Shown piece after piece: positions 45,966 to 62,116 of a DNA stretch of 64,000 nt (its first letter is position 1; each line of letters opens with the position of its first letter). The notes beneath the pieces were generated by a model. That model worked only from the letters and a program-made list of their open reading frames with translations. It had not been told where the DNA came from and did not search any database. Source of the DNA: Candidatus Latescibacterota bacterium (GTDB taxonomy: Bacteria; Latescibacterota; UBA2968); contig OZ242311.1 of the NCBI GenBank assembly GCA_965207885.1, positions 5,376,001 to 5,440,000 on the forward strand, written 5' to 3'. The position numbers and the translations under genes are program-made.

Positions 45966-48167
45966 TCAAAAAAACGACAACTTGTAATGCGCTTTAAAAC
46001 TCCGCCCTGTTTCGGGCATCACGGATCGAATGCGCGAAAGATGATTGCGGTATTCCGTATCCAAAAGATTGTCCAAAGAGAGAATAATACTATGGCGGGT
46101 ATGGTCGGTATTAATGTCGCGCTGGGCATACACACCGAAAACAGCATAGCCATCCGTAGGCTCTTCAAATATATCCACACGCTCCTGTCGTGTAACAAAT
46201 TCCGCAGTCCCACCAACCGTAAGAAAGGGATGCTCATAAGTCGTACTTCCAACAAATTTGAACGGCGGAATCTCGGGCAGAGGCAAATGCTCATCCCGGT
46301 TCTCTCCACGCACATAACTGCCGTTCAATTCCAGATTCAAACGCGTATTCAAACGCCACCCCAGATGCATCTCCAGACCCAAAAATCGCGCAGCAACACC
46401 ATCGGCAGCGTAAATTGGCAGAAGTTGGGCAAAATTGATCTCTCCGGTATTGCGCGGGGCAATATAGGTATCAAACTCGTTCCAATATCCGCTCAAAACA
46501 AAATCGACGCCCGGTTGCAAATAGTGAAAAAAGACCTCAAAGCCCAGACTCGTTTCGGCCTCGAGATCGACATTGCCCACCTCAAAAGTGTAAGCAGCCA
46601 GATGCGGTCCATCGTTGTAAAGCTCTTCAATCGTGGGCACGCGCTGAGACCGGCTTAAGTTTAAACCTCCGGTCAGCCAATCAGTAAAGGACACAAGCGG
46701 GCTGATTGCCGCAGACCAGACGTGAAAGGTGCGATCTACATCGAGATCTGCAATGCTCTTTGTTCTTGGGCGCGGATCAAAGTCGGCATACGTATAACGC
46801 GCAGCAACCTGAAATTCGATGTGTCGATAGCTAAACTCGTGATAAAAACCAAGGTAAGCGTTTTGCTCTCGCGTGGGCGGCGTAAAAACAAACGCGCCCA
46901 ATTTGAGATGGTGGTGACCAAAGCCCAGGGACAGAACGGTATTTCGCGTCTGGCCCTGTGTGTTCATAAGCAATTTGAGATCACCGCGGTAGTCGTGGAA
47001 CAAAAACTCGGACCCAATATTACCGCTGGATTCGTACTCGAAGTGGTGATAGTAAGTCCTGGTAAAATCCACCTCTACACTACTGAACACCTGACGATCA
47101 AAATGGTATGCCGCCTTGCCATCAAATACCCGACGCTCAATATCCAGATCTACGCCATTGGGATGCCCGCCAATAAATCCACCGGGAATGCCGTATTGGG
47201 TCAAAAACTGATCAAAAGAAGCCCCGATATATCCCCGGTCAGTGGGATATGACAGACCGAGCGTATGCGTACGCGTTTCAATCGGTGTATTGGCGAGCCT
47301 ACCAATGGGGGTTTGCACATCTCGAGTATCGCGGTACGTGGTCTCGGCATACAGCGCAAGCGGCCCCACGGGCACTGTAATCCCAACGGCAGAGAGATAC
47401 CCCCGATTGACCGTCTCGCCATAAGCACCAACACTGCCAGAAACGCGCTGCGGATGGTATTCTGGAATCTTCTGTTTCACCACATTGATAACCCCACCAA
47501 TGGCCGATGCCGTGTGAAGCAGTATGCGCGGTCCCCGGATGATTTCGAGACGTTCTGAATTAAAAGGCTCAAGCGTAACAGCGTGATCGGCAGAAGTAGC
47601 GGAAAGATCGCGGGTCTCCATACCATCTATATTGATCTGCACGCGATCGCCACTAAGACCGCGTATAACCGGCCGAGCAGGTGCAGGTCCCATGCTGCGG
47701 ATGGCGACGCCGATTTCGTTTTTCATCGTCTCTGCAAGCGTGAGACTGTACTTCTTCTGAAGCTCATCTCCAGAAAGCACGCCAGTCGCTTCGTGCAATT
47801 CTTCAAAGCGGGTTTCCGCACTTTTCCCTACCACGTCAATGGTATCAATCTGGATCTCCCGGGCGACCATTTCGACGTACAGAATGGGCACTTTCTCATC
47901 CGAAACCCTTATTTCCCGACTCACCAATCCATACCCGACACGAAAAAAAGACAGACGATGAACGCCCTCCGGCAGATGAAAGATAAAACGGCCTCGTTCA
48001 TCGGTTGTCGTGCCCTCTGCGCCATCATTGACTTTGATATCAACATCGCCGATTGCGCGTTGGGTCTTGTGATCAAAAACATATCCCTCGAGCAATCGCG
48101 TCTCTTGAGATGCGCCGATCGCAAAAAAAAAGAACACAACAACCAAAAAAGAAGTCGTGAATCTCAA
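45966..48167 (-). CDS. TonB-dependent receptor (ZnuD-like), copy 1
   Basis: Carboxypeptidase-like N-domain, RPVIRGLSGDRV, DHAV plug, GPHLA, NLLDTEYRNHLS, terminal F; TTG start after GGAG. Confidence 0.88.
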   Translation of the reverse strand: MRFTTSFLVVVFFFFAIGASQETRLLEGYVFDHKTQRAIGDVDIKVNDGAEGTTTDERGRFIFHLPEGVHRLSFFRVGYGLVSREIRVSDEKVPILYVEMVAREIQIDTIDVVGKSAETRFEELHEATGVLSGDELQKKYSLTLAETMKNEIGVAIRSMGPAPARPVIRGLSGDRVQINIDGMETRDLSATSADHAVTLEPFNSERLEIIRGPRILLHTASAIGGVINVVKQKIPEYHPQRVSGSVGAYGETVNRGYLSAVGITVPVGPLALYAETTYRDTRDVQTPIGRLANTPIETRTHTLGLSYPTDRGYIGASFDQFLTQYGIPGGFIGGHPNGVDLDIERRVFDGKAAYHFDRQVFSSVEVDFTRTYYHHFEYESSGNIGSEFLFHDYRGDLKLLMNTQGQTRNTVLSLGFGHHHLKLGAFVFTPPTREQNAYLGFYHEFSYRHIEFQVAARYTYADFDPRPRTKSIADLDVDRTFHVWSAAISPLVSFTDWLTGGLNLSRSQRVPTIEELYNDGPHLAAYTFEVGNVDLEAETSLGFEVFFHYLQPGVDFVLSGYWNEFDTYIAPRNTGEINFAQLLPIYAADGVAARFLGLEMHLGWRLNTRLNLELNGSYVRGENRDEHLPLPEIPPFKFVGSTTYEHPFLTVGGTAEFVTRQERVDIFEEPTDGYAVFGVYAQRDINTDHTRHSIILSLDNLLDTEYRNHLSRIRSVMPETGRSFKAHYKLSFF

Positions 48168-48235
48168 AACGAATCTCCAACAGAGAAAAAGCCCCCACCC
48201 TGTGTCTAAAAGACCGGGTGGGGGCAAAGCAGTTA

Positions 48236-48724
48236 CTACCCTCCGACATGCACGGGAATGGGAATCGTGCGAAAATCCACATGATCGTCGTGCGTGACCT
48301 GGAGCTCAATCGTAGTTTCGCCTACCTTGAGACCCCGCAGGTGAAAATCAAACTTGCCGACATCGTCGGCATCCTGAACAACTTCCAAAACCGTGGGATC
48401 GGCAATCGCCCATGTAAATTTGAAATCCGGATCATCTGGCGGGTCAATCTCGTCGCCATCTTCATCCAGAAAACGGATGCTCCAGTGCGACGTTTCCTCA
48501 TTGAGAGGGGCGTCGAGATGATCTTTCCGACCACCGCTGGCATCAATCTGCCCTCGAAAATAGCGGAAAAAACGATTGCCCGAATCTATGATAACCAGAC
48601 CCTCGGGTTCGAAATGCTCTTCCTGGTGTGACGTGGGATCGTCACTACCACAACCGATCACAAAGAAAGTCAGAACTGCCACAGCGGCAAAGGTGCGTTG
48701 AAAAGATTTTCTTGCAAAAAACAT
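48236..48724 (-). CDS. His/Asp-rich lipoprotein, copy 1
   Basis: Lipobox VIGC, HQEEHFEPEG, HDDHVDF. Confidence 0.8.
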   Translation of the reverse strand: MFFARKSFQRTFAAVAVLTFFVIGCGSDDPTSHQEEHFEPEGLVIIDSGNRFFRYFRGQIDASGGRKDHLDAPLNEETSHWSIRFLDEDGDEIDPPDDPDFKFTWAIADPTVLEVVQDADDVGKFDFHLRGLKVGETTIELQVTHDDHVDFRTIPIPVHVGG

Positions 48725-48846
48725 GATAGTCTCCTGAATAAGCCCGCACGGGCAGAGAACACAGAGAGAGGTCCTCTCATGCCCGCACAAAAAGGCACAA
48801 AAATACAGAAAAATAATGCAAACTTTAGTATTGAGATATTCAGTAT

Positions 48847-49125
48847 TCAGAAGACTACTGGAGGGGATCGGCCCTGAGGCAAAAGGAAAAATTGGTAGGA
48901 TAATAATGTAGCGTTCGACAGAAAATAAAACCAATAGACATATAACGCGCGAAAAATAACTATGGCACTGATAAGACCACAAAAGCTATAAACCCAATAG
49001 CAAACGAGGCAATGGATGTCATGGTCAACATGGTCAACCGCATGCCCAAAGGCAAGGGCAAACGCGCCGATGAACAATAGGGCGATCAGCCTTTTAACGA
49101 GCGGGTGTCTGAGGTAGAGATTCAT
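48847..49125 (-). CDS. Leader peptide: signal/TM, His-rich CxxC, C-terminal RSPP (DUF2946/CruR/CutF-like), copy 1
   Basis: GHAVDHVDHDIHCLVC ... PQGRSPPVVF. Confidence 0.75.
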   Translation of the reverse strand: MNLYLRHPLVKRLIALLFIGAFALAFGHAVDHVDHDIHCLVCYWVYSFCGLISAIVIFRALYVYWFYFLSNATLLSYQFFLLPQGRSPPVVF

Positions 49126-49234
49126 TTTTAATACTATATGGGGCTATCTCGAGCAAACATTTTCTGCTACAAGTGGCGTTGATCTTTTTTGCCTCTTAAG
49201 TTTAAAGATAGAACTTGACGCCAAAAAGAGCAAG

Positions 49235-49262
49235 CCCCAGATCAGTCTGCTGGTCTGGGGCG
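49235..49262 (-). terminator. Terminator-like hairpin after TonB receptor copy 2
   Basis: gccccagatcagtctgctggtctggggc followed on the minus strand by ttgctcttttt. Confidence 0.6.
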
Positions 49263-49293
49263 TAGTAAGGTTTTAGGATAACTGACCGCTAAA

Positions 49294-51495
49294 TTAAAAG
49301 AAAAACATCTTGTAATGCATTTTAATACTCCGACCCGTTTCGGGCATCACGGATCGAATGCGCGAGAGATGGTTGCGGTATTCCGTATCCAAAAGGTTGT
49401 CCAAAGAGATAATAATACTATGGCGGGTATGATTGGTGTTAATGTCGCGCTGAGCATAGACACCAAAAACAGCATAGCCATCCGTAGGATCTTCAAATAT
49501 ATCCACGCGCTCCTGTCCTGCGACAAATTCCGCAGTCCCGCCAACCGTAAGATAAGGATGCTGATATGTCGTGCTTCCAACAAACTTGAGCGGTGGCATC
49601 TCGGGCAGAGGCAAATGCTCATCCCTGTTCTCTCCACGCACATAACTACCGTTCAATTCCAGATTCAAACGCGTATTCAAACGCCACCCCAGATGCATCT
49701 CCAGACCCAAAAATCGCGCGGCAACACCATCGGCAGCGTAAATCGGCAGAAGTTGGGCAAAATTGATCTCTCCGGTATTGCGCGGGGCAATATAGGTATC
49801 AAACTCGTTCCAATATCCGCTCAAAACAAAATCGAAACCCGGTTGCAGATAGTGAAAAAAGACCTCGAAGCCCAGGCTCGTTTCGGCCTCAAGATTGACA
49901 TTGCCCACTTCAAAAGTGTACGCAGCCAGATGCGGCCCATCGTTGTAAAGCTCTTCAATAGTAGGCTCCCGCTGGGATCGGCTGAAATTGAAACCGCCCG
50001 TTAGCTGATCGGTAATGTTCACAAGCGGACTGATTGCCGCAGACCAGGCGTGAAAGGTGCGACCTACACCGAGAGCCGCAATACTCCTTGTCGTCGGACG
50101 CGGATCAAAGTCGGCATACGTATAACGCGCAGCAGCCTGAAATTCAATGTCGCGATAAATAAATTCGTGGTAGAGACCTAATGAAGCGCATTGCTCTCGC
50201 GTGGGCGGCGTAAAAACAAAACCCCCCAATTTGAGGTTATGATGACCAAAGCCCAGGGACAGAACGGTATTTCGCGTCTGGCCCTGTGTGTTCATAAGCA
50301 ATTTGAGATCACCGCGGTAGTCGTGGAACAAAAACTCGGACCCAATACTGCCGCTGGATTCGTACTCGAAGTGGTGATAGAAGGTCCTGGTGAAATCCAT
50401 CTCTACACTACTGAGCACCTGACGATCAAAATGGAAGGCCGCCCTGCCATCAAACACCCGGCGATCAATATCCAGATCTACGCCATTGGGATGCCCACCA
50501 ATAAATCCACCGGGAATGCCGTATTGGGTATCGAACTGGTCAAAAGAGGCACCGATATATCCCCGGTCAGTGGGATATGACAGACCGAGCGTATGCGTGC
50601 GCGTGTCAATAGGTGTGTTGACAAGCCTGCCAATAGGCGTTTGCACATCCCGGGTATTGCGGTACGTAGTCTCGGCATACAGCGCGAGCGGCCCCACAGG
50701 CACTGTGATTCCAGCGGCAGAGAGATACCCTCTATTAACCGTCTCGCCATAAGCACCAACACTGCCAGAAACGCGCTGCGGATGGTATTCCGGAATTTTT
50801 TGTTTCACGACATTGATAACCCCACCAATGGCCGATGCCGTGTGAAGCAGTATGCGCGGTCCCCGAATAATTTCGAGACGTTCTGAATTAAAAGGCTCAA
50901 GCGTAACCGCGTGATCAGCAGAAGTAGCGGAAAGATCGCGGGTCTCCATACCATCTATATTGATCTGCACGCGATCGCCACTAAGACCGCGTATAACTGG
51001 TCGAGCAGGTGCAGGTCCCATGCTGCGGATGGCGACGCCGATTTCGTTTTTCATCGTCTCTGCAAGCGTGAGACTGTACTTCTTCTGAAGCTCATCTCCA
51101 GAAAGCACGCCAGTCGCTTCGTACAATTCTTCAAAGCGCGTCTCTGCGCTTTGGGCGACCACCTCAATGGTATCCGCAACAATTTCCCGGGCAATCATTT
51201 CGACGTACAGAATGGGCACTTTCTCATCCGAAACCCTTATTTCCCGACTCACCAATCCATACCCAACACGAAAAAAAGACAGACGATAAACACCCTGCGA
51301 CAGACGCAAGACAAAACGGCCCCGATCATCGGTTGTTGTACCCACCGCGTCATCATCGAGTATGATATCGACATTGTCAATTGTGCGTTGGGTCTTGTGA
51401 TCAAAAACATATCCCTCGAGCAATCGCGTCTCATCCGACGCGCTGATCGCGGAAAAGCAGACCACAAAAACGAGAATGAAGGCTGTAAATCTCAA
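49294..51495 (-). CDS. TonB-dependent receptor (ZnuD-like), copy 2
   Basis: Paralogue of the same length as copy 1; TTG start after AGGAGG. Confidence 0.88.
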   Translation of the reverse strand: MRFTAFILVFVVCFSAISASDETRLLEGYVFDHKTQRTIDNVDIILDDDAVGTTTDDRGRFVLRLSQGVYRLSFFRVGYGLVSREIRVSDEKVPILYVEMIAREIVADTIEVVAQSAETRFEELYEATGVLSGDELQKKYSLTLAETMKNEIGVAIRSMGPAPARPVIRGLSGDRVQINIDGMETRDLSATSADHAVTLEPFNSERLEIIRGPRILLHTASAIGGVINVVKQKIPEYHPQRVSGSVGAYGETVNRGYLSAAGITVPVGPLALYAETTYRNTRDVQTPIGRLVNTPIDTRTHTLGLSYPTDRGYIGASFDQFDTQYGIPGGFIGGHPNGVDLDIDRRVFDGRAAFHFDRQVLSSVEMDFTRTFYHHFEYESSGSIGSEFLFHDYRGDLKLLMNTQGQTRNTVLSLGFGHHNLKLGGFVFTPPTREQCASLGLYHEFIYRDIEFQAAARYTYADFDPRPTTRSIAALGVGRTFHAWSAAISPLVNITDQLTGGFNFSRSQREPTIEELYNDGPHLAAYTFEVGNVNLEAETSLGFEVFFHYLQPGFDFVLSGYWNEFDTYIAPRNTGEINFAQLLPIYAADGVAARFLGLEMHLGWRLNTRLNLELNGSYVRGENRDEHLPLPEMPPLKFVGSTTYQHPYLTVGGTAEFVAGQERVDIFEDPTDGYAVFGVYAQRDINTNHTRHSIIISLDNLLDTEYRNHLSRIRSVMPETGRSIKMHYKMFFF

Positions 51496-51559
51496 AACAT
51501 ACCTCCTATAAAAAACCCTCATCCTGTGTCTGAAAGATCGGATGAGGGCAAAGCAGTTA

Positions 51560-52048
51560 CTACCCTCCGACATGCACGGGAATGGGAATCGTGCGAAAAT
51601 CCACATGATCGTCGTGCGTGACCTGGAGCTCAATCGTAGTTTCGCCTACCTTGAGACCCCGCAGGTGAAAATCAAACTTGCCGACATCGTCGGCATCCTG
51701 AACAACTTCCAAAACCGTGGGATCGGCAATCGCCCATGTAAATTTGAAATCCGGATCATCTGGCGGGTCAATCTCGTCGCCATCTTCATCCAGAAAACGG
51801 ATGCTCCAGTGCGACGTTTCCTCATTGAGAGGGGCGTCGAGATGATCTTTCCGACCACCGCTGGCATCAATCTGCCCTCGAAAATAGCGGAAAAAACGAT
51901 TGCCCGAATCTATGATAACCAGACCCTCGGGTTCGAAATGCTCTTCCTGGTGAGACGTGGGATCATCACTACCACAACCGATCACAAAGAAAGTCAGAAC
52001 TGCCACAGCAGCAAAGGTGCGTTGAAACGAATTTCTTGCAAAAAACAT
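51560..52048 (-). CDS. His/Asp-rich lipoprotein, copy 2
   Basis: Mature protein identical to copy 1. Confidence 0.8.
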   Translation of the reverse strand: MFFARNSFQRTFAAVAVLTFFVIGCGSDDPTSHQEEHFEPEGLVIIDSGNRFFRYFRGQIDASGGRKDHLDAPLNEETSHWSIRFLDEDGDEIDPPDDPDFKFTWAIADPTVLEVVQDADDVGKFDFHLRGLKVGETTIELQVTHDDHVDFRTIPIPVHVGG

Positions 52049-52172
52049 GATACAGTCTCCTGAATAAGCCCGCACGGGCAGAGAACACAGAGAGAGGTCC
52101 TCTTATGCCCGCACAAAAAGGCACAAAAATACAGAAAAATAATGCAAACTTTAGTATTGAGATATTCAGTAT

Positions 52173-52460
52173 TCAGAAGACTACTGGAGGGGATCGGCTC
52201 TGAGGTGAAAGGGAAAACTGGCGGAATAAAAATGTGGAGTGCGGCAGAGCGAAAAAACAACAGGCGTATAATGCACTCAAAATGACTATGGCACTGATAA
52301 GACCACTAAAGCTATAAATCCAATGGCAAACGAAGCAATGGGTGTCATGTTCATCATGGTCAACATGGTCAACCGCATGCCCAAAGGCAAGGGAAAATGC
52401 ACCGACGAGCAATATGGCGATCAGCGTTTTAACGAGCGGGTGTCTGGTGTAGAGATTCAT
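52173..52460 (-). CDS. Leader peptide: His-rich CxxC plus RSPP, copy 2
   Basis: GHAVDHVDHDEHDTHCFVCH ... PQSRSPPVVF. Confidence 0.75.
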   Translation of the reverse strand: MNLYTRHPLVKTLIAILLVGAFSLAFGHAVDHVDHDEHDTHCFVCHWIYSFSGLISAIVILSALYACCFFALPHSTFLFRQFSLSPQSRSPPVVF

Positions 52461-52519
52461 TTTTAATACTATATGTATATGGGGCTACCTCGAGCAAAAA
52501 TAGTTGTCTATCAATGCGC

Positions 52520-52972
52520 CTATTTGTCCCCTGCGGAATGCGCTCGCAATTGTCTAATCGATTGCAATCGCAAAAGCAGCTTTTCGAGATTTGATTTTAG
52601 CTCTTTTTGGATCTCGACCATTTGCTCGGGCGTCACCTGTAGATTTTCTTTTTCGCCATGGTGTTCATGGCCGTGATCATGGGCCTCTGCCGAGTCATCT
52701 CCCGGCACTTCAACCACATTTTTTTCCCACAATTCAAAGTCTTTTTCGATAACCTGAAGACTATCGCGTATATCCACAGCATGATGTGAAAATGACTTCA
52801 GGCTATCCAGTTGGTTCTCAAATTGCTCTTCAATTTCCATCATCGCCTTGTGAATATCCGCCGCCTGTTGCAAGTGGTGTGCATCTTCTTTATTTTCTCC
52901 ATGGCAAGAAACAAAGAACGCAAACATTATAACACTTATCACTTTGAGCCGCATTGGATTTTGTCTCTCCAT
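52520..52972 (-). CDS. His-rich helical lipoprotein
   Basis: FVSC lipobox; VVEVPG...HDHGHEHHG. Confidence 0.7.
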   Translation of the reverse strand: MERQNPMRLKVISVIMFAFFVSCHGENKEDAHHLQQAADIHKAMMEIEEQFENQLDSLKSFSHHAVDIRDSLQVIEKDFELWEKNVVEVPGDDSAEAHDHGHEHHGEKENLQVTPEQMVEIQKELKSNLEKLLLRLQSIRQLRAHSAGDK

Positions 52973-55969: not shown

Positions 55970-57190
55970 TCATTCTGACTCCTCAACCATTTGAAGCTCC
56001 GGAAACGGGTTCCGGAACCCTGCCCAGGTCTTGCTGTTAGCGGAGGCGAGGCGCTCGTCGAGCAGGCATGCATCGAGGCGAGCGCGCATCGCCGCCTCGT
56101 GCATCTGCTGGCCGATGAAGACGAGTTGTTGCGCGCGATCGCCGAAGCGAGGATGCCAGTCCGGCTGCTGGTCAGGTCGCCGACCCTCGGGGTGCCCCCA
56201 GTGTTCGCGAGGCACGGCCGCCCACCACATCCCAACGGGGTTCACGTTGATGACGCCGCCGGCTTGAGACCACTCGTAGAGGATCCGATGGTCAGCGGCG
56301 ACCCAGAAGAAGCCCTTCGAGCGGAGCACGCCGCTCCAGTTCTCGGCGTCGTGCAGAAGTGCCCACAGCTTCTCGGCGTCGAAGGGCTGCGACGTCCGAT
56401 AGGTGAAGCTCGAGATCCCGTACTCCTCAGTCTCCGGCGTGTGCTCACCCTGAAGCTCTCGAATCCAGCCGGCGGAGTGCGCCGCCTTCTCGTAGTCGAA
56501 CAGGCCCGTGTCGAGCACGCATTTGAGAGGAACCTCTCCGTGCGTCGCCATGAGGACCTCCGCGCCGGGGTTGAACGCTTTCACGATCGCCTCGACCTCG
56601 AGAGCCTGATCGTCGCTCACGAGATCGAGCTTGTTCAGCACGATGACGTCGGCGAACTCGATCTGGTCGATGAGCAGGTCGGTCACCGTCCGGTGATCTT
56701 CTTCGCCCAGCGACTCACCCCGGTCTTGGAGCGCCTCGGCGGCGTTGTAGTCCCGCAGGAAGCTCGCCGCGTCCACGACTGTGACCATTGTGTCGAGGCG
56801 CGAAACCTGACCCAGGCTCACACCGTTCTCGTCCTCGAAGGTGAAGGTCTGCGCGACGGGAATAGGCTCCGAGATCCCCGTGGACTCGATGAGCAGGTAG
56901 TCGAAGCGTCCCTCCTGCGCGAGCCGTGAGACCTCGGCGAGCAGGTCGTCTCGCAACGTGCAGCAGATGCAGCCGTTCGACATCTCGATCAGCTTCTCCT
57001 CGGTCCGCGAGAGTTCCGCACCGCCGCGCTCAACGAGCGTCGCGTCGATGTTGACCTCGCTCATATCGTTGACGATGACCGCGACGCGCATGCCCTCGCG
57101 GTTGTTGAGCACGTTGTTGAGTAGAGTAGTCTTGCCTGCGCCGAGAAAGCCGGACAGGACAGTAACGGGAAGTCTCTCTGACAAGGGCAC
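55970..57190 (-). CDS. COG0523 Zn-metallochaperone GTPase (YciC/ZigA type)
   Basis: [50 protein letters not shown]. Confidence 0.92.
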
Positions 57191-57270
57191 TTTAGTTTCC
57201 TCTCTTAAAGGGTGATGACATCCAACAGCGAATCATTCAAACCGGTAGCGATTCAGTTTGCGGTCGTGCT

Positions 57271-58317
57271 TCACCTGTTGCCCACTCGCCAAACCGTCGC
57301 GCCACCCTGAGCGTCGAGCGCAGCAAGCGCACGTCCATCTGGTCGCCAGTACAAGGCGCTGACAACATCTGCCACAAGCGCAATTCCTATCGGATTGCCT
57401 TGTCCATCGCGCCTGAGTGACCACACAACTACGCCGCCATCCCGAGCTCCCGAGGCCAAGCGCATCCCGCGGTGAGCGAAGGCGAGCTTTGTAACAGTTT
57501 GAACATGAAAATATAGAGTACCGGGCCGCGTGCCTTCGGGACCTCTTCCCTGGAAGCTCCAGACCGTCACCGCCTCGCCTCCACCGGTGGCCAAAAGGGT
57601 GCCAGTGTCATCGAAGGCCAAGGCGGACGGCTTGGCAGGATATCCTGACATCATCGAGTCCTGCTTCGTGGAGCGACGCCAGAAATGCACCGAGTTGTCC
57701 TGGCTGCCGCAGGCCACGATATCCCCGTCCGGGCTCAGTACCATCGACACCAAGGATCCCATCCACTCCAGCTTCTGGCGAAGTTCCCCAGTAGATGCGT
57801 CGAAGAACGTCACCCGACCGTAACAGGCCGTCGCCAACTCCCCTGCGCTGGACCAGGCGATCGCGCTGACGGTGCTGGGATGATCATCAGATCGCCAGAC
57901 TTCTCCGCCGTCCGCACCATACGCGCGAACCTGCCGGGAGCAGGAAGCCGCCAGCCATTGGCCGTCCGGCGACCACGCCACGTTCTCCACCCAATCGCTG
58001 CCGACGTCGATAGCCTGTTTTACCTGACCTTCGGCGACACCCCAGATAAGGACTCGTCCGTCCTGGCCAGCCGTAGCGAACGCGGTTCCGCTTGGGTGGA
58101 TCGCCATCGCGAGCACGCCGCCATCATGCCCTCTCTGCCGGGCCCAGGCGCTTGCGCCGGACTTGCCGTCGAACGCGTAGATGCCACCCGCGGCGTCACT
58201 GACCACCAGTGCCTCACCGCGGAGGGTCCAGCCCCCGGCGATGGCGTAGTCGCCGACCGCCGCAGACCAGCCCCGGCGAAGAACACCCTTTGAGCTGACG
58301 ACATTCAAATCAGACAT
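57271..58317 (-). CDS. WD40-repeat protein
   Basis: ATAGQDGRVLIW, VAWSPDG, ACGSQDNSVHFW, LASGARDG. Confidence 0.9.
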   Translation of the reverse strand: MSDLNVVSSKGVLRRGWSAAVGDYAIAGGWTLRGEALVVSDAAGGIYAFDGKSGASAWARQRGHDGGVLAMAIHPSGTAFATAGQDGRVLIWGVAEGQVKQAIDVGSDWVENVAWSPDGQWLAASCSRQVRAYGADGGEVWRSDDHPSTVSAIAWSSAGELATACYGRVTFFDASTGELRQKLEWMGSLVSMVLSPDGDIVACGSQDNSVHFWRRSTKQDSMMSGYPAKPSALAFDDTGTLLATGGGEAVTVWSFQGRGPEGTRPGTLYFHVQTVTKLAFAHRGMRLASGARDGGVVVWSLRRDGQGNPIGIALVADVVSALYWRPDGRALAALDAQGGATVWRVGNR

Positions 58318-59651
58318 GCCTCGAATCCCTGCCGCATGCTCTGCTCATCGAGGTTGCGGCCGATGAAGACGAGCTGATTGCGCCGGGGCGAGTCTCCCCA
58401 TGGACGCTCCGGCTGGCCGTCAAAGAGCATGTGAACCCCCTGGAAGACGAAGCGACACGACTCACCCGCGAGGCTGATGAAGCCCTTCATTCGGAAGATG
58501 TCCACCCCGCGCTCACGGAGCAGTTCGCCAAGCCAGACGTCGAGCCTTTCGGAATCTACGTCGCCGTCCATCTCGATCGCGATAGAGCCCACCTCGTCGT
58601 CGTGCTCGTGCTGTGCGACCCAGGTGCGCTCGACCTCTTGCTTGATTGTCGCTCCTTCCGCGTTCGTCAGTTGGAGATCGAACTCCTCCGCGGTGTGCTG
58701 GGCGTAGAGGCCAATCCGCATCTGCGTATCGACCTCCAGGAAGAACGACTTGCGCCCTGCGGAATCGAGCCGGAGGTTCACATGCTTTCCGACAGGAATC
58801 TCTTCCCCCGGGCGAATGAGGTCCGCAGGTTCGGCGTACCGCCGCACACTCCACTCCGCACCCTCACGGAGGGCAGCGTCATCCGTGCCCTGGTCGGACA
58901 CGACGACGAGCGACATCGTCGGATCAGGTCCATCGGCGAGGCTGAGTTCGTAGCGGCCGATATCGAGCGAATAGACGCCAGTCCATTCGAACGGATACTC
59001 CGGCTCGAGGAAGGCGGGACGACGCTCGAGCACCTGATCCAGGTCGAAGGCACCGAGGTTGAGTACCGTGTCCAGGGAGACGTTCGCCCGCTCGCTACGC
59101 ACGACTTGCGCCATTCGGTTCATGTCCTGGATCCGAGCCTCGATCCTGTCGAGCACCCCGCCGTTGACGAGGTCCGTCTTGTTAAGAACAAGGACGTCTG
59201 CGAACGCGATCTGTTCCGTGCTCTCGTCGCTTCGTCCGAGTTGCTGCTCGATGTGGGCTGCGTCAACGAGCGTGACGATCCCGTCAAGCGCGAACTCCGC
59301 GCGAATCTCGTCGTCCATGAAAAAGGTTTGAGCGACCGGACCGGGATCGGCGAGCCCTGTGGTCTCCACCAACACGTAGTCGAACTTGTCTCGGCGCTTC
59401 ATGAGGTTGCCGAGCACGCGAATCAGGTCTCCGCGCACCGTGCAGCAGATGCAGCCGTTCGACATTTCGAAGATCTCCTCGTCAGCATTTATGACAAGCT
59501 CATGATCGATGCCGACCTCCCCGTATTCGTTCTCGATCACGGCAATGCGCTTGCCGTGCTCCTCACTCAAGATCCGGTTGAGCAGGGTCGTCTTGCCAGA
59601 GCCGAGGAAGCCGGTGAGGATGGAAACAGGTACTTTTCGCGGTGTGTTCAT
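58305..59651 (-). CDS. COG0523 GTPase (YjiA/CobW type) with inserted domain
   Basis: TGFLGSGKTT, NEYGEVGID, GCICC, ETTGLADP, FRMKG, FQGVH. Confidence 0.92.
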   Translation of the reverse strand: MNTPRKVPVSILTGFLGSGKTTLLNRILSEEHGKRIAVIENEYGEVGIDHELVINADEEIFEMSNGCICCTVRGDLIRVLGNLMKRRDKFDYVLVETTGLADPGPVAQTFFMDDEIRAEFALDGIVTLVDAAHIEQQLGRSDESTEQIAFADVLVLNKTDLVNGGVLDRIEARIQDMNRMAQVVRSERANVSLDTVLNLGAFDLDQVLERRPAFLEPEYPFEWTGVYSLDIGRYELSLADGPDPTMSLVVVSDQGTDDAALREGAEWSVRRYAEPADLIRPGEEIPVGKHVNLRLDSAGRKSFFLEVDTQMRIGLYAQHTAEEFDLQLTNAEGATIKQEVERTWVAQHEHDDEVGSIAIEMDGDVDSERLDVWLGELLRERGVDIFRMKGFISLAGESCRFVFQGVHMLFDGQPERPWGDSPRRNQLVFIGRNLDEQSMRQGFEACLI

Positions 59652-59710
59652 CTAGTTCTCCTGGAGCAGAGGGTGGTGATGTGCCGATCAATATACATTC
59701 TATTCTCCCT

Positions 59711-61021
59711 TCAGACAGCGAGACCAGCCCGGATGAGCCACGGTTTCGACAGCCCTTCTGCCGTAGATCCATCGAAGAGCAACCGCCGGTCTCGCAGTAA
59801 GACGACGCGCGTTGCCTGGGGTGGCAGTGAATGAAGGCAGTGGGTTGCCCAGACGCACGTTGCGCTCGTCCGACGAACAGACTCTACAACGAGCGTGCGA
59901 AGCTCATGGGCCGCGACGGGATCAAGCCCGGCCGTGGGCTCGTCGAGGAGCAGCAACGCGGGCTCGAGCACCAGGAGACCGGCGAGCGCAACCCGGCGTT
60001 GCTCCCCGAAGCTGAGCTGATGACACGGACGCTCCAGCAGATGGTCTATGCGCAAAGCCATCGCCACCTCGCGGGATCGACATTGCGCCTCGCCTGCCTC
60101 AACGCCACGACAAAGCAGGCCCCAAGCAATGTCCTCGGCGACGGTGCTTGCGATGAAGTGGTGTTCTGGGTTCTGGTCGAGAAGCGCCACGCGTCCGTGG
60201 AGCCGAGCGCGGAGCGTCGCATCGGGCGACACGTGGTTTCCGAGGCGAGTCATGGTCCCTTGCGCGGGTCCGTCGAGCCCCGCGAGCAGACGCAATAAGC
60301 TCGTTTTCCCGGCTCCACTTGGCCCACACACGAGCAGCCACTCCGCTCTTGCCAAGCGAAGTTCGAGTTGCTCAAGCACCAACTGCCCACTGCGTTCGAC
60401 GTCGATGGCATCGAGGTGGACGCCGTCATGAGCCCGAACGTCTTCGCAGGAGGCACCACGCAGCAGTGCGTTCTCCTCGGCACGTTCGAGGCGCGCGAAG
60501 GCATGCAGGGCACCTTCGCCGAGCAGCGGTCCCCAGGCGGCCAGAGGCAAACGCGGGGACCCCAGACGGAGGCGGGCCGCGTCACGCCGCTGGACCCACT
60601 CACGCTGGGTAAGAACACCGTGCATGAGCGCGTGGTCAAGACTGGCCACGACGCCCTCAGGAATCCGAAGCCAGAGCAGGAGTTGTCGCAGCGACGCCCA
60701 GTCAACCTGGGTGCCAAGCCAGAGGATCCAGATAACACCACACAAGACCCTGGTGCTCGTTTGGACGATGATATCCGCGTTGGAATCCAGGGCGACCCCA
60801 CCAAGCAGTGCGAGCGCCACGAGGGCCAACATCCACGCGAGGGCAGGCTTAATCCTTCGGCGTCCACGGGCATGTGCGAACAGCAGAAGCACCGCGGCGA
60901 TCCCTGAGCCGATCAGGGACAAGGTGGTACTGCGTGCGCCTGCGTTGACGATCAGTACGCTGCTGGTCAGCGCGATACCCAATGCCGCAACCCATAGCGG
61001 TTGGCGGCGCTCGAAGAACAA
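59711..61021 (-). CDS. ECF transporter T-component plus ATPase fusion (CbiQ-CbiO-like)
   Basis: TM N-half with ARLRLG / ALLRG coupling motifs; GPSGAGKT, DQNPEH, LSFGEQRRVALA, LLDEPT. Confidence 0.8.
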   Translation of the reverse strand: MFFERRQPLWVAALGIALTSSVLIVNAGARSTTLSLIGSGIAAVLLLFAHARGRRRIKPALAWMLALVALALLGGVALDSNADIIVQTSTRVLCGVIWILWLGTQVDWASLRQLLLWLRIPEGVVASLDHALMHGVLTQREWVQRRDAARLRLGSPRLPLAAWGPLLGEGALHAFARLERAEENALLRGASCEDVRAHDGVHLDAIDVERSGQLVLEQLELRLARAEWLLVCGPSGAGKTSLLRLLAGLDGPAQGTMTRLGNHVSPDATLRARLHGRVALLDQNPEHHFIASTVAEDIAWGLLCRGVEAGEAQCRSREVAMALRIDHLLERPCHQLSFGEQRRVALAGLLVLEPALLLLDEPTAGLDPVAAHELRTLVVESVRRTSATCVWATHCLHSLPPQATRVVLLRDRRLLFDGSTAEGLSKPWLIRAGLAV

Positions 61022-61028
61022 AGAGTGC

Positions 61029-62116
61029 TCAGCGTGGAGGTGTATCGCGCCCTCCTCCGAGCACTCGTTCCCAGCAGCGCCCTGCGATAAATCCCAATCC
61101 GAAGAGTATGAGGATCGACATCGCGAGCCCGATCTCCCCCTGGCTCAGGTCGAAGATGCTCTCTGTGGGCGGTCGCCCCGCCTCCTCCGCGGTCGCACCG
61201 AATACGGTTCCGTCAATGCCTTCATAGCCGCATCCCGACAGGCCGATCACGAGCAACAGAAGCATGATGGACGCAAGGGGCGCGGACACGGTGCGAAGCT
61301 TCCTCAGTGCATCTCGGCAAAAAAAATTGTGCATATAAATCCTATGTCATTACGGCATGGTTTAAGCCGCCTGTCTGCCAACAGACAGGCAATCCAGAAG
61401 TTTTTAAACCGTCAGTGTGCAAGAATGACGGCAATCTATATGCTGAAAGACTTACGCCACGATACACTCAGCGAATTCGGCAGGAGGTCTGGCCGACGTG
61501 TGACCAACAGCCGTACAATGCCGACGGAGGCGACGGCTTCAAGAACCGCCAAGGGGATCTGGACAGGGGCAAACCCGAGCAGCACCGCGGCGAAGGTCGT
61601 CGCAGGCGCCGTCACATCGGACAACGCCACGGCAAGCACCGCGGCGTCTGCCACATATACGCTCAGGCCGCCGACGCCACATGCGAAAGCGAGGCGAAAA
61701 GCCCCGTCTATACCGAGCCGCCGGAGCAAAGCCCAAAGCCCAACGGTCGTCAGAGGCCCCAGCAGTCCGAGCGTCAGGGTGTTGACCCCCAGCGTCGTGA
61801 GCCCGCCGTGAGCGAAGAAGACCGCCTGCAGCAAGAGCACGAAGAACGTGGGCCACACGATGCGGCGGACGCCGACAACCAGGGCGAGCACCGGCGTAAG
61901 GCAGATGTGACTGGTTGCGCCCACGACGGGGACTGGTAGCGGTAGCAGAGTGCCGGCAAAGAGCAGGCTCGTGGCGCCCGCCATGATGACCGAGGACGAC
62001 GGTGTGTTGCGTCGCGTTCGTTGCTCTTCACGAAGGCTCCAAAAGACAGTGGGGGCGGCCAGGGCACTCCACGCGATGGCTTGGCTGAGCGGAAGCACAC
62101 CTTCTGATAGATGCAT
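61029..62116 (-). pseudogene. cbiM: Fused CbiM-CbiN-like Co/Ni ECF substrate component, split by a MITE
   Basis: MHLSEG N-terminus, GATSH, LQAVFFAHGGLTTLGVN; removing 61307-61470 restores one frame (PNSLRKLRTV). Confidence 0.8.
61307..61467. mobile_element. 161-bp MITE with nested palindromes
   Basis: Imperfect TIRs gtgcatctcggc / gccacgatacac; TCA duplicated at 61304-61306 and 61468-61470; AT-richer than the island. Confidence 0.8.

Follow-up and report, generated by a model that had tools for sequence, protein, structure and literature searches.

A candidate metal-sensing arrest-peptide leader in a Latescibacterota genome whose last codons are predicted to mask the next Shine–Dalgarno sequence

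A 64,000-nucleotide (nt) stretch of the genome of a Candidatus Latescibacterota bacterium (GCA_965207885.1, contig OZ242311.1, positions 5,376,001 to 5,440,000; hereafter the window) contains a leader open reading frame (ORF) of 92 amino acids (aa) in front of genes for a lipoprotein and a TonB-dependent receptor. With moderate confidence, we read this leader as a co-translational metal-sensing arrest peptide of the CruR and CutF kind and as the first gene of a leader–lipoprotein–TonB receptor unit. The peptide ends in an RSPP motif and three further residues, and the mRNA directly after the two Pro codons was predicted to pair with the Shine–Dalgarno (SD) region of the lipoprotein gene. The layout and uptake context of CruR appear here to be joined to SD masking of the SecM and CutF type, in a phylum and metal context for which this has not been described. 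Stalling at RSPP, the response to metal and the direction of that response are proposed by analogy with these systems. All leader, lipoprotein and receptor genes lie on the minus strand of the window. The leader was aligned with close sequences (alignment A2, 21 sequences) and with diverse members (A3, 27 sequences). The features of the first module (copy A) are:

48847–49125, minus strand: leader ORF A, 92 aa, identified from its sequence, 20 close homologues, alignment A2 and an AF2 model
48859–48870, minus strand: RSPP codons CGA TCC CCT CCA, the putative arrest site, from the sequence; R, P and P invariant in A2 and A3
48844–48858, minus strand: helix 5' arm (GUAGUCUUCUGAAUA) with the anti-SD CUUCU, spanning the final three sense codons, the stop codon and the 3 nt after it
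48726–48740, minus strand: helix 3' arm (UAUUCAGGAGACUAU) with the lipoprotein SD AGGAG, from folding and junction alignments
48749–48785, minus strand: inner GC-rich hairpin in the loop of about 103 nt, present in the minimum free energy (MFE) and centroid fold
48236–48724, minus strand: lipoprotein A, the putatively regulated gene, 162 aa, lipobox VIGC
45966–48227, minus strand: TonB-dependent receptor A, with plug, barrel and N-terminal CarboxypepD_reg domain

The leader peptide and the helix at its 3' end

Leader A carries, in this order, a basic N-terminus (R6, K11, R12), a hydrophobic stretch, a cluster of potential metal ligands, a spacer and the arrest motif. The cluster (residues 28–42) reads H28xxD31H32xD34H35xxH38C39xxC42 in the translation, and 43 mostly hydrophobic residues separate its CxxC from RSPP. 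The C-terminus is Q-G-R86-S-P-P89-V-V-F, followed by the stop; its codons are R at 48870–48868, S at 48867–48865, the two P at 48864–48862 and 48861–48859, VVF at 48858–48850 and TGA at 48849–47. The ORF at 48847–49125 thereby confirmed an earlier sequence-only reading, which had described a 92-aa leader with HxxDHxDHxxHCxxC and a terminal RSPPVVF. AF2 modelled the leader as helices 8–31 and 40–81 (mean predicted local distance difference test score (pLDDT) 79). A putative export-type segment lies at the N-terminus, where the hydrophobic stretch comes after K11 and R12 and AF2 places helix 8–31, as judged by the sequence and the AF2 helix only.

The leader is a real, conserved coding gene. Its 20 homologues were 61–81% identical, and a leader profile matched 42 of the 168 genomes of the phylum, in 8 of 49 genera; within the window's genus it matched 20 of 20 genomes other than the window's own. 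When 1.84 billion representatives were searched with a profile, 23 proteins of 88–126 aa were retrieved, of which 22 shared the layout and one (P0033) was without the motif; a word-indexed search with A3 returned almost no additional relatives. The only invariant columns over A3 were C39, C42, R86, P88 and P89, with H28 nearly invariant, and C39 and C42 were invariant in A2 as well. Within the close clade (A2), the second helix also carried conserved residues (W44, Y46, F48, G50–S53). The CxxC-to-RxPP distance was 42–46 residues in the 46 proteins with both motifs (P0042, scored by script as 23 from a second CxxC, measures 42 from the aligned CxxC by manual reading), 43 in both leaders of the window and 42–43 in 22 distant loci. 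The tail past PP consisted of 2–3 residues in 37 of the 46 proteins. RSPP occurred in 35 and RAPP in 11 of them; RAPP was found in 15 of the 22 distant loci, and the two motifs interchange inside the close clade, where P0014 and L002:1910 have RAPP. Searched genome-wide, the pattern of CxxC, spacing and C-terminal RxPP matched eight frames, among which only the two window leaders were credible and the other six looked spurious.

The two arms (48858–48844 and 48740–48726) pair at 15 of 15 positions, two of them G-U, with a duplex energy of about −20 kcal/mol. The first A of AGGAG lies 11 nt before the lipoprotein ATG (48724–48722). When the 181-nt stretch of copy A was folded, the helix was present in both the MFE and the centroid fold (−52.6 kcal/mol, z −3.3, 1 of 200 shuffles as good). 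Both the 15-pair helix over the lipoprotein SD and the inner hairpin at 48749–48785 in its loop, as named in the sequence-only reading, were thus recovered in one fold. The leader-to-lipoprotein spacer is 122 nt long, U-rich and structured. Rfam gave no family at E ≤ 1 on 48200–52700.

Conservation was assessed over the close-clade loci, which comprise the window and 16 related Latescibacterota loci with 25 leaders, 23 of them in front of the same lipoprotein family. In all 23 of these junctions 12–15 of the 15 pairs were kept in the same register, and 93% of the cells paired, compared with 22–46% in registers slid by 1–4 nt. Spacer length varied from 93 to 288 nt, and in L011 and L013–L017 the spacer sequence was unrelated. 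The inner hairpin was kept in most close relatives, and L011 and L013–L017 had unrelated sequence in its place. The SD region was also scanned against about 330–520 sliding 20-nt windows over leader and spacer, and the leader 3' end was its single best partner in 21 of the 23 junctions. In alignment A5 (the 23 close junctions with L020 and L037; 25 rows), 92.9% of 367 cells paired, compared with 42–47% when slid by 1–3 columns. Most one-sided changes in A5 were wobble-compatible, among them C-G to U-G in 9 of the 25 rows at one column and in 8 at another. These wobble-keeping C-to-T changes include a Ser-to-Phe change of the last residue, which argues for a constraint on the RNA over a constraint on the peptide tail.

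A direct repeat (CUGAAUA-CUGAAUA, 48837–48850) starts with the third base of the last sense codon, includes the stop codon and was found in most close relatives. Its second copy could pair with UAUUCAG while a ribosome covers the first. A register-shift model based on this repeat (CUGAAUACUGAAUA) at the stop codon was dropped, as the repeat is missing in L011 and L013–L017.

The order leader–lipoprotein–TonB receptor was found in both copies and for 23 of the 25 leaders of the window and the 16 loci. The lipoprotein starts with Met-Phe-Phe (AUGUUUUUU) in all 23 close junctions, has the conserved motifs H(Q/E)EEHFEPEG and HxxHxDF and was predicted to adopt an immunoglobulin (Ig)-like beta-sandwich fold. 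It belonged to no Pfam or NCBIfam family, and an atlas search with it retrieved only unnamed lipoprotein clusters from related phyla. The fold matched only generic Ig-like, filamin and S-layer structures and so gave no clue to the metal. Receptor A probably starts in fact at a TTG near 48170, which is preceded by a GGAG of its own and lies about 65 nt past the lipoprotein stop. Between that stop and this probable start, the minus strand has a hairpin (48226–48192; −31 kcal/mol, z −4.7) followed by UUUUU, which could act as a partial terminator that sets the lipoprotein-to-receptor ratio. The helix masks the lipoprotein SD only, and the receptor may follow the lipoprotein, for instance through polarity. 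Of the earlier claim that lipoprotein and receptor are switched together, the masking of the lipoprotein SD stood, but the receptor has an apparent GGAG/TTG start of its own behind a hairpin. A further hairpin with a U-run (49261–49222), past receptor B and upstream of leader A, suggests that module A is transcribed on its own. These two long-loop hairpins were missed by the terminator scan and were found by folding.

The proposed switch, related systems and the candidate metal

In the proposed switch, the leader end would pair with the lipoprotein SD region in free mRNA and the start would be masked. A ribosome on the leader would then arrest at R-S-P-P with the two Pro codons in its P and A sites. 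With the P site at 48864–48862, the helix starts at P-site +7. The footprint of a stalled ribosome reaches about +15. It would therefore cover GUAGUCUUC, the 9 nt that pair with GGAGACUAU, so that the SD core would be freed and six A/U-rich pairs would be left; a second ribosome could then initiate the lipoprotein gene. In folding models, keeping the nt up to P-site +15 unpaired made the lipoprotein start (positions −15 to +5) cheaper to open: the cost decreased from 12.3 to 6.4 kcal/mol for copy A, from 10.9 to 6.8 kcal/mol for copy B and from 11.3 to 6.7 kcal/mol for the median over 25 junctions. The pairing left in the blocked state was a weak, G-U-rich hairpin between the SD region (CAGGAGAC) and the invariant lipoprotein start (48716–48724), which may form a second, leaky layer of SD masking.

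According to toeprinting of CruR, the P and A sites are occupied by the two Pro codons of its RAPP, and RSPP itself was recovered as an arrest sequence in random screens, is partially permissive in ApdA/ApdP and shows strong depletion in proteomes (PMC12992588). For SecM–secA and CutF–cutO, stems that shield an SD and are opened by a stalled ribosome are established (10.1101/2025.02.05.636593; PMC9973294).

In the arrest geometry, the His/Asp/Cys cluster lies 46–60 residues from the peptidyl-transferase centre. At an RSPP arrest, the nascent His4-Asp3-Cys2 cluster would thus be near or just past the tunnel exit, where it would set the duration of the arrest. Metal binding would fold or pull the nascent chain and release the arrest, after which the helix would re-form and the uptake genes would be off at plentiful metal. 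The folding of a zinc finger with Zn has reportedly released a SecM arrest. Relief of arrest by metal is favoured here because the operon is uptake-like, and the opposite direction, metal-induced arrest as in CutF, is possible. Sensing could take place in the cytoplasm, which was proposed for CruR, or in the periplasm, which was proposed for CutF.

Like CruR (Bp2923 of Bordetella pertussis, DUF2946), the leader is a small gene at the head of an operon that includes a TonB-dependent transporter; the resemblance extends to an invariant CxxC, R-x-P-P three residues before the stop, a long intergenic spacer and a hydrophobic N-terminal segment, which in the leader is putatively of the export type (PMC9426467). 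The fixed distance between the CXXC of CruR and the RAPP three residues before its end is 45 residues, conserved within 1–2, compared with 43 here, and lengthening it by 5 residues led to a loss of regulation (PMC9426467). Under the uptake logic that the two share, release of the stall by metal would be the natural direction. In contrast to CruR, most members here have RSPP rather than RAPP, there is no Pfam DUF2946 match, and the leader is about 50 aa shorter (92 vs. 145 aa) and carries a dense cluster of His and Asp residues beside its CxxC. The neighbouring genes are of zinc type instead of copper type, and the output would differ as well, being Rho-dependent termination in CruR, as shown experimentally, and SD unmasking here, as predicted. 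CruR homologues were reported mostly from Proteobacteria, whereas the present leaders are from Latescibacterota.

With CutF of Rhodobacter capsulatus the leader shares an mRNA stem that shields the next SD and that in CutF was proposed to be melted by a stalled ribosome (PMC9973294; 10.1101/2025.02.05.636593). The anti-SD of CutF is in an intergenic stem-loop, whereas here it is provided by the leader's own last codons and stop codon. CutF has CxxxC and PPP, is EF-P-dependent and copper-stalled and induces a detoxifying oxidase (PMC9973294; 10.1101/2025.02.05.636593); in contrast, the motif here is RAPP-type, which was EF-P-resistant in the cited work, and the genes under control would be uptake genes. 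The leader passes all filters of the rule-based 'CutF-like' list (PMC9973294) with its 92 aa, PP at positions 88–89, hydrophobic N-terminus and 122-nt spacer. As described, that class already includes TonB-like neighbours and non-copper (His-rich, Ni/Co) subgroups (PMC9973294; 10.1101/2025.02.05.636593). SecM–secA and ApdA/ApdP have in common with the leader an R-x-(G/P)-P at the C-terminus, a localisation signal at the N-terminus, putative in the leader, and a stall, proposed for the leader, that opens an SD-occluding helix. Unlike SecM and ApdA/ApdP, which are force-released Sec/YidC monitors, the leader has a metal-ligand cluster and lies in a metal-uptake locus. Taken together, it is best read as a divergent, short RSPP-type relative, or a convergent look-alike, of the CruR/CutF arrest-peptide leaders.

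The ligand was approached through the gene neighbourhood. The minus-strand neighbours upstream encode a His-rich 150-aa protein, a MerC-like protein, DUF3299, a MacB/FtsX-type permease and an ATP-binding cassette (ABC) ATPase, and further neighbours encode two CobW/COG0523 GTPases, a WD40 protein, an ABC protein with CbiM and a FUR-family regulator. COG0523 proteins, ZnuD-like receptors and DUF3299–ABC systems are typical of Zur regulons. From this neighbourhood zinc is the most likely ligand, and the His/Asp/Cys ligand set suits Zn, with Ni, Co or Cu also compatible. A DUF2946 gene heads a Zn/Cd efflux operon in a table of the Caulobacter Zur regulon (PMC4176598), so the zinc link of the wider family was already visible in annotation.

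A more far-reaching reading is that the leader is the first natural zinc-sensing ribosome arrest peptide and a protein-based substitute for a zinc riboswitch: a Zn-folded His4-Asp3-Cys2 cluster on a 43-residue ruler would release the RSPP arrest, and the stop-codon region would re-mask the SD of the zinc-uptake genes. We regard this as possible but doubtful; if proven, it would be considerably more interesting. To our knowledge, the only metal-responsive arrest peptides studied experimentally are CruR and CutF, both copper-sensing. Our literature search found no paper describing a zinc-responsive arrest peptide, and the authors of the CruR study noted that no riboswitch was known for Cu or Zn (PMC9426467). 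A zinc-linked RSPP-type member with a clean, conserved helix over the SD would carry the principle over to a further metal and into a phylum that is uncultured and apparently associated with sponges. If the zinc-sensing reading is true, the same short leader family, which lies outside Pfam DUF2946 and occurs in several phyla, would serve as a general and retunable sensor of metals ahead of genes for outer-membrane uptake. With 92 codons and 122 nt, such a zinc-linked member would also be a compact test system, in which ligand cluster, length ruler, arrest motif and helix are separable and for which nature provides variants of the parts (RAPP/RSPP, His-cluster lengths, spacers).

Points against the reading and competing explanations

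Several results on the helix, the leader start, the homology and the metal weigh against the reading of the leader as a metal-sensing arrest peptide. The covariation of the helix was modest. Double-sided changes in A5 affected 4 pairs (5 cells), a pair count reached by 4 of 500 shuffles, and the covariation score was 0.141 compared with 0.115 ± 0.006 (reached by 1 of 500 shuffles), statistics for which the structure was taken from one of the tested sequences and the sequences are related. Both arms are also constrained otherwise, the 5' arm as coding sequence and the 3' arm as SD. Two of the close junctions were weakened: L013 had five better windows, and L014, with an uncompensated A-C, had 77. 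Among the distant leaders (L018–L037, from other genera of the phylum), the leader end was the best SD partner in 3 of 15 leader–lipoprotein junctions (L020, L035:2874, L037) and not in the other 12. Leaders ending RSPPVV at L003:2652–2927 and L004:2351–2626 head an operon of ABC ATPase, FtsX-type permease and DUF3299, and the leader-to-ABC junction of L003 had neither an SD at the start nor significant structure (z −0.05). The absence of the pairing from distant and ABC junctions indicates that SD masking by the leader end is a trait of the clade and a few neighbours and not of the family. In the blocked state of copy A the SD was still weakly paired, with a P(unpaired) of only 0.06. Moreover, a ribosome that terminates on the leader opens the helix as well, and some coupling can thus arise without a stall. 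The leader spacer is a predicted transmembrane helix within a confident AF2 hairpin, which also fits a stable small membrane protein.

Upstream of the leaders (49126–49170 and 52461–52510) there was no Shine–Dalgarno sequence (GUAUUAAAAAUG), and consensus promoter scans upstream of both found no minus-strand site. Several relatives have a TTGACT-type hexamer about 30–35 nt before the leader ATG, and it is a possibility that the leader mRNA is leaderless or has a very short 5' leader. Neither leader matched any Pfam or NCBIfam model, and PF11162 (DUF2946; gathering score 23.7 bits) failed to match either of them (P0001, P0002) even at E ≤ 10. In a six-frame search of the whole genome, PF11162 hit one unrelated sub-threshold place and none at the leaders. 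Its sub-threshold matches to 10 of the 23 remote relatives (E 7e-4 to 0.34) span model positions of about 51–59 to 117, that is, the C-terminal half from CxxC to RAPP. Feature-based atlas look-alikes, taken as a lead only, included a cluster automatically named 'putative DUF2946' and another in which 54% of the members carry PF11162. Without a DUF2946 match, the homology to CruR and CutF rests on motif geometry, these sub-threshold links and the look-alikes. The Pfam DUF2946 model misses the short branch of the family, and surveys built on it therefore undercount such leaders. As to the metal, ZnuD was the best NCBIfam match of both receptors, at 234 bits for receptor A against a cut-off of 950, and CbiM points to Co/Ni. 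The suggestion made earlier of a non-copper variant is supported by neighbours of zinc rather than copper type. For the metal-sensing arrest switch as a whole, the conserved CruR-type layout, the clade-conserved helix and the unmasking geometry found computational support, whereas the expectation of a helix kept and covarying across homologues was borne out only in part: it was present in 23 of 23 close junctions, but covaried modestly and was absent from more distant relatives.

One competing explanation is plain translational coupling, in which any ribosome at the last codons melts the helix, RSPP only slows the end of translation without a metal-dependent stall, and the leader is a genuine small two-helix membrane protein with a periplasmic His/Cys site, such as an uptake accessory or chaperone. 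The helical hairpin of the AF2 model (mean pLDDT 79), the close-clade conservation of W44, Y46, F48 and G50–S53 in the second helix and the fact that a terminating ribosome covers the entire 5' arm all agree with it. The wider family, however, keeps the length of the second helix but not its sequence, and its invariant residues are exactly CxxC and R-PP. The fixed spacing of 42–46 residues and the tail of 2–3 residues are hard to explain for a membrane protein, and the spacing is a functional ruler in CruR (PMC9426467). RxPP is also among the most avoided tetrapeptides of bacterial proteomes (PMC12992588), and credible C-terminal CxxC...RxPP frames occurred in this genome only at the two leaders. 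We therefore consider coupling without metal sensing unlikely. A smaller chance still is given to transcription attenuation of the CruR type as the main output, in which the stalled ribosome would block Rho (or an RNA element), so that transcription runs on into the lipoprotein and receptor genes, and the SD helix would be secondary. CruR acts in this way upstream of a TonB-dependent transporter (PMC9426467), distant relatives of the same phylum have spacers of about 300 nt without SD pairing, and an untranslated lipoprotein gene would itself invite Rho polarity. The 122-nt spacer, however, is U-rich and structured rather than C-rich and unstructured, it has no convincing intrinsic terminator (one weak site in copy A, none in copy B), and the feature conserved in the clade is the SD pairing.

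Finally, the complementarity might be a by-product of an AGGAG SD and of leader codons containing CUCCU, with no regulatory role. The independent constraint on both arms and the covariation of only 5 cells in 4 pairs would be in line with this. Pairing, however, reaches 5–6 nt further than the SD core at either side, where it takes in non-coding and spacer positions, and it survives the full replacement of the loop, the Ser/Phe swap of the last residue and a compensated stop-codon change in L017, where TGA became TAA and the partner C became T; in L016 a T-A pair became A-T. With 92.9% of the A5 cells paired in register compared with 42–47% in slid registers, we consider a by-product very improbable.

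The second copy, distant leaders and neighbouring genes

A tandem duplication spans the whole leader–lipoprotein–TonB receptor module (45966–52460), and two leader copies per genome are also common among related genomes. The features of copy B are:

52173–52460, minus strand: leader ORF B, a 95-aa paralogue with a His cluster longer by 3 residues, the same 43-residue spacer and a terminal RSPPVVF
52046–52184, minus strand: junction B, with the same helix and loop, ending at the lipoprotein B ATG (52048–52046)
49294–52048, minus strand: lipoprotein B and TonB-dependent receptor B, the latter 89% identical to receptor A

The helix of copy B was present in the MFE and centroid folds (z −2.27, 1 of 200 shuffles as good), and an insertion of 2 nt close to the ATG gives its 15 pairs one more G-U than in copy A. 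Over the stretch that runs from the RSPP codons into the lipoprotein start, copies A and B differ by a single substitution and by that insertion in the spacer. The copies have diverged in the middle of the leader; their spacers and lipoproteins are almost identical. The near-identity of the RSPP-to-lipoprotein stretch suggests gene conversion or strong constraint.

The distant leaders mostly have RAPP and are followed by the same lipoprotein–receptor pair after about 290–510 nt. In L024–L036 (genus g10), which are RAPP-type with spacers of about 290–510 nt, CGUGUC occurs twice just past the leader stop and is followed by GACACG. This element allows two alternative hairpins, one of which uses the last codons of the leader, in an attenuator-like layout. 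Two tandem leaders in L023 (389–1088) and one in L018 (257–631) precede a porin-like outer-membrane protein and not a lipoprotein. The porin-like proteins of L018 and L023 share the motif GTS-AFNPA-S-NGLF, and a periplasmic-binding-like gene follows them.

In the window, the ABC operon (from 55889) that corresponds to the leader-headed one of L003 and L004 is without a leader. The block at 56000–62000 has a G+C content of 61–65%, compared with about 44–54% around it, and holds the CobW/COG0523 pair, the WD40 and ABC–CbiM genes and, at its edge, the FUR-family gene; it may be an acquired metal-homeostasis island.

Short metatranscriptome contigs labelled as sponge metagenome (runs X1–X4 of one study) were 90–99% alike and cover the N-terminal half of the leader, the lipoprotein and the receptor; none spans the spacer. 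Because DNA in the RNA library is possible, these contigs show neither co-transcription nor an RNA end. A public gene call (P0047, 164 aa) reads the leader TGA as Trp and runs on into the spacer; it is probably a call under another genetic code and not a genuine longer form.

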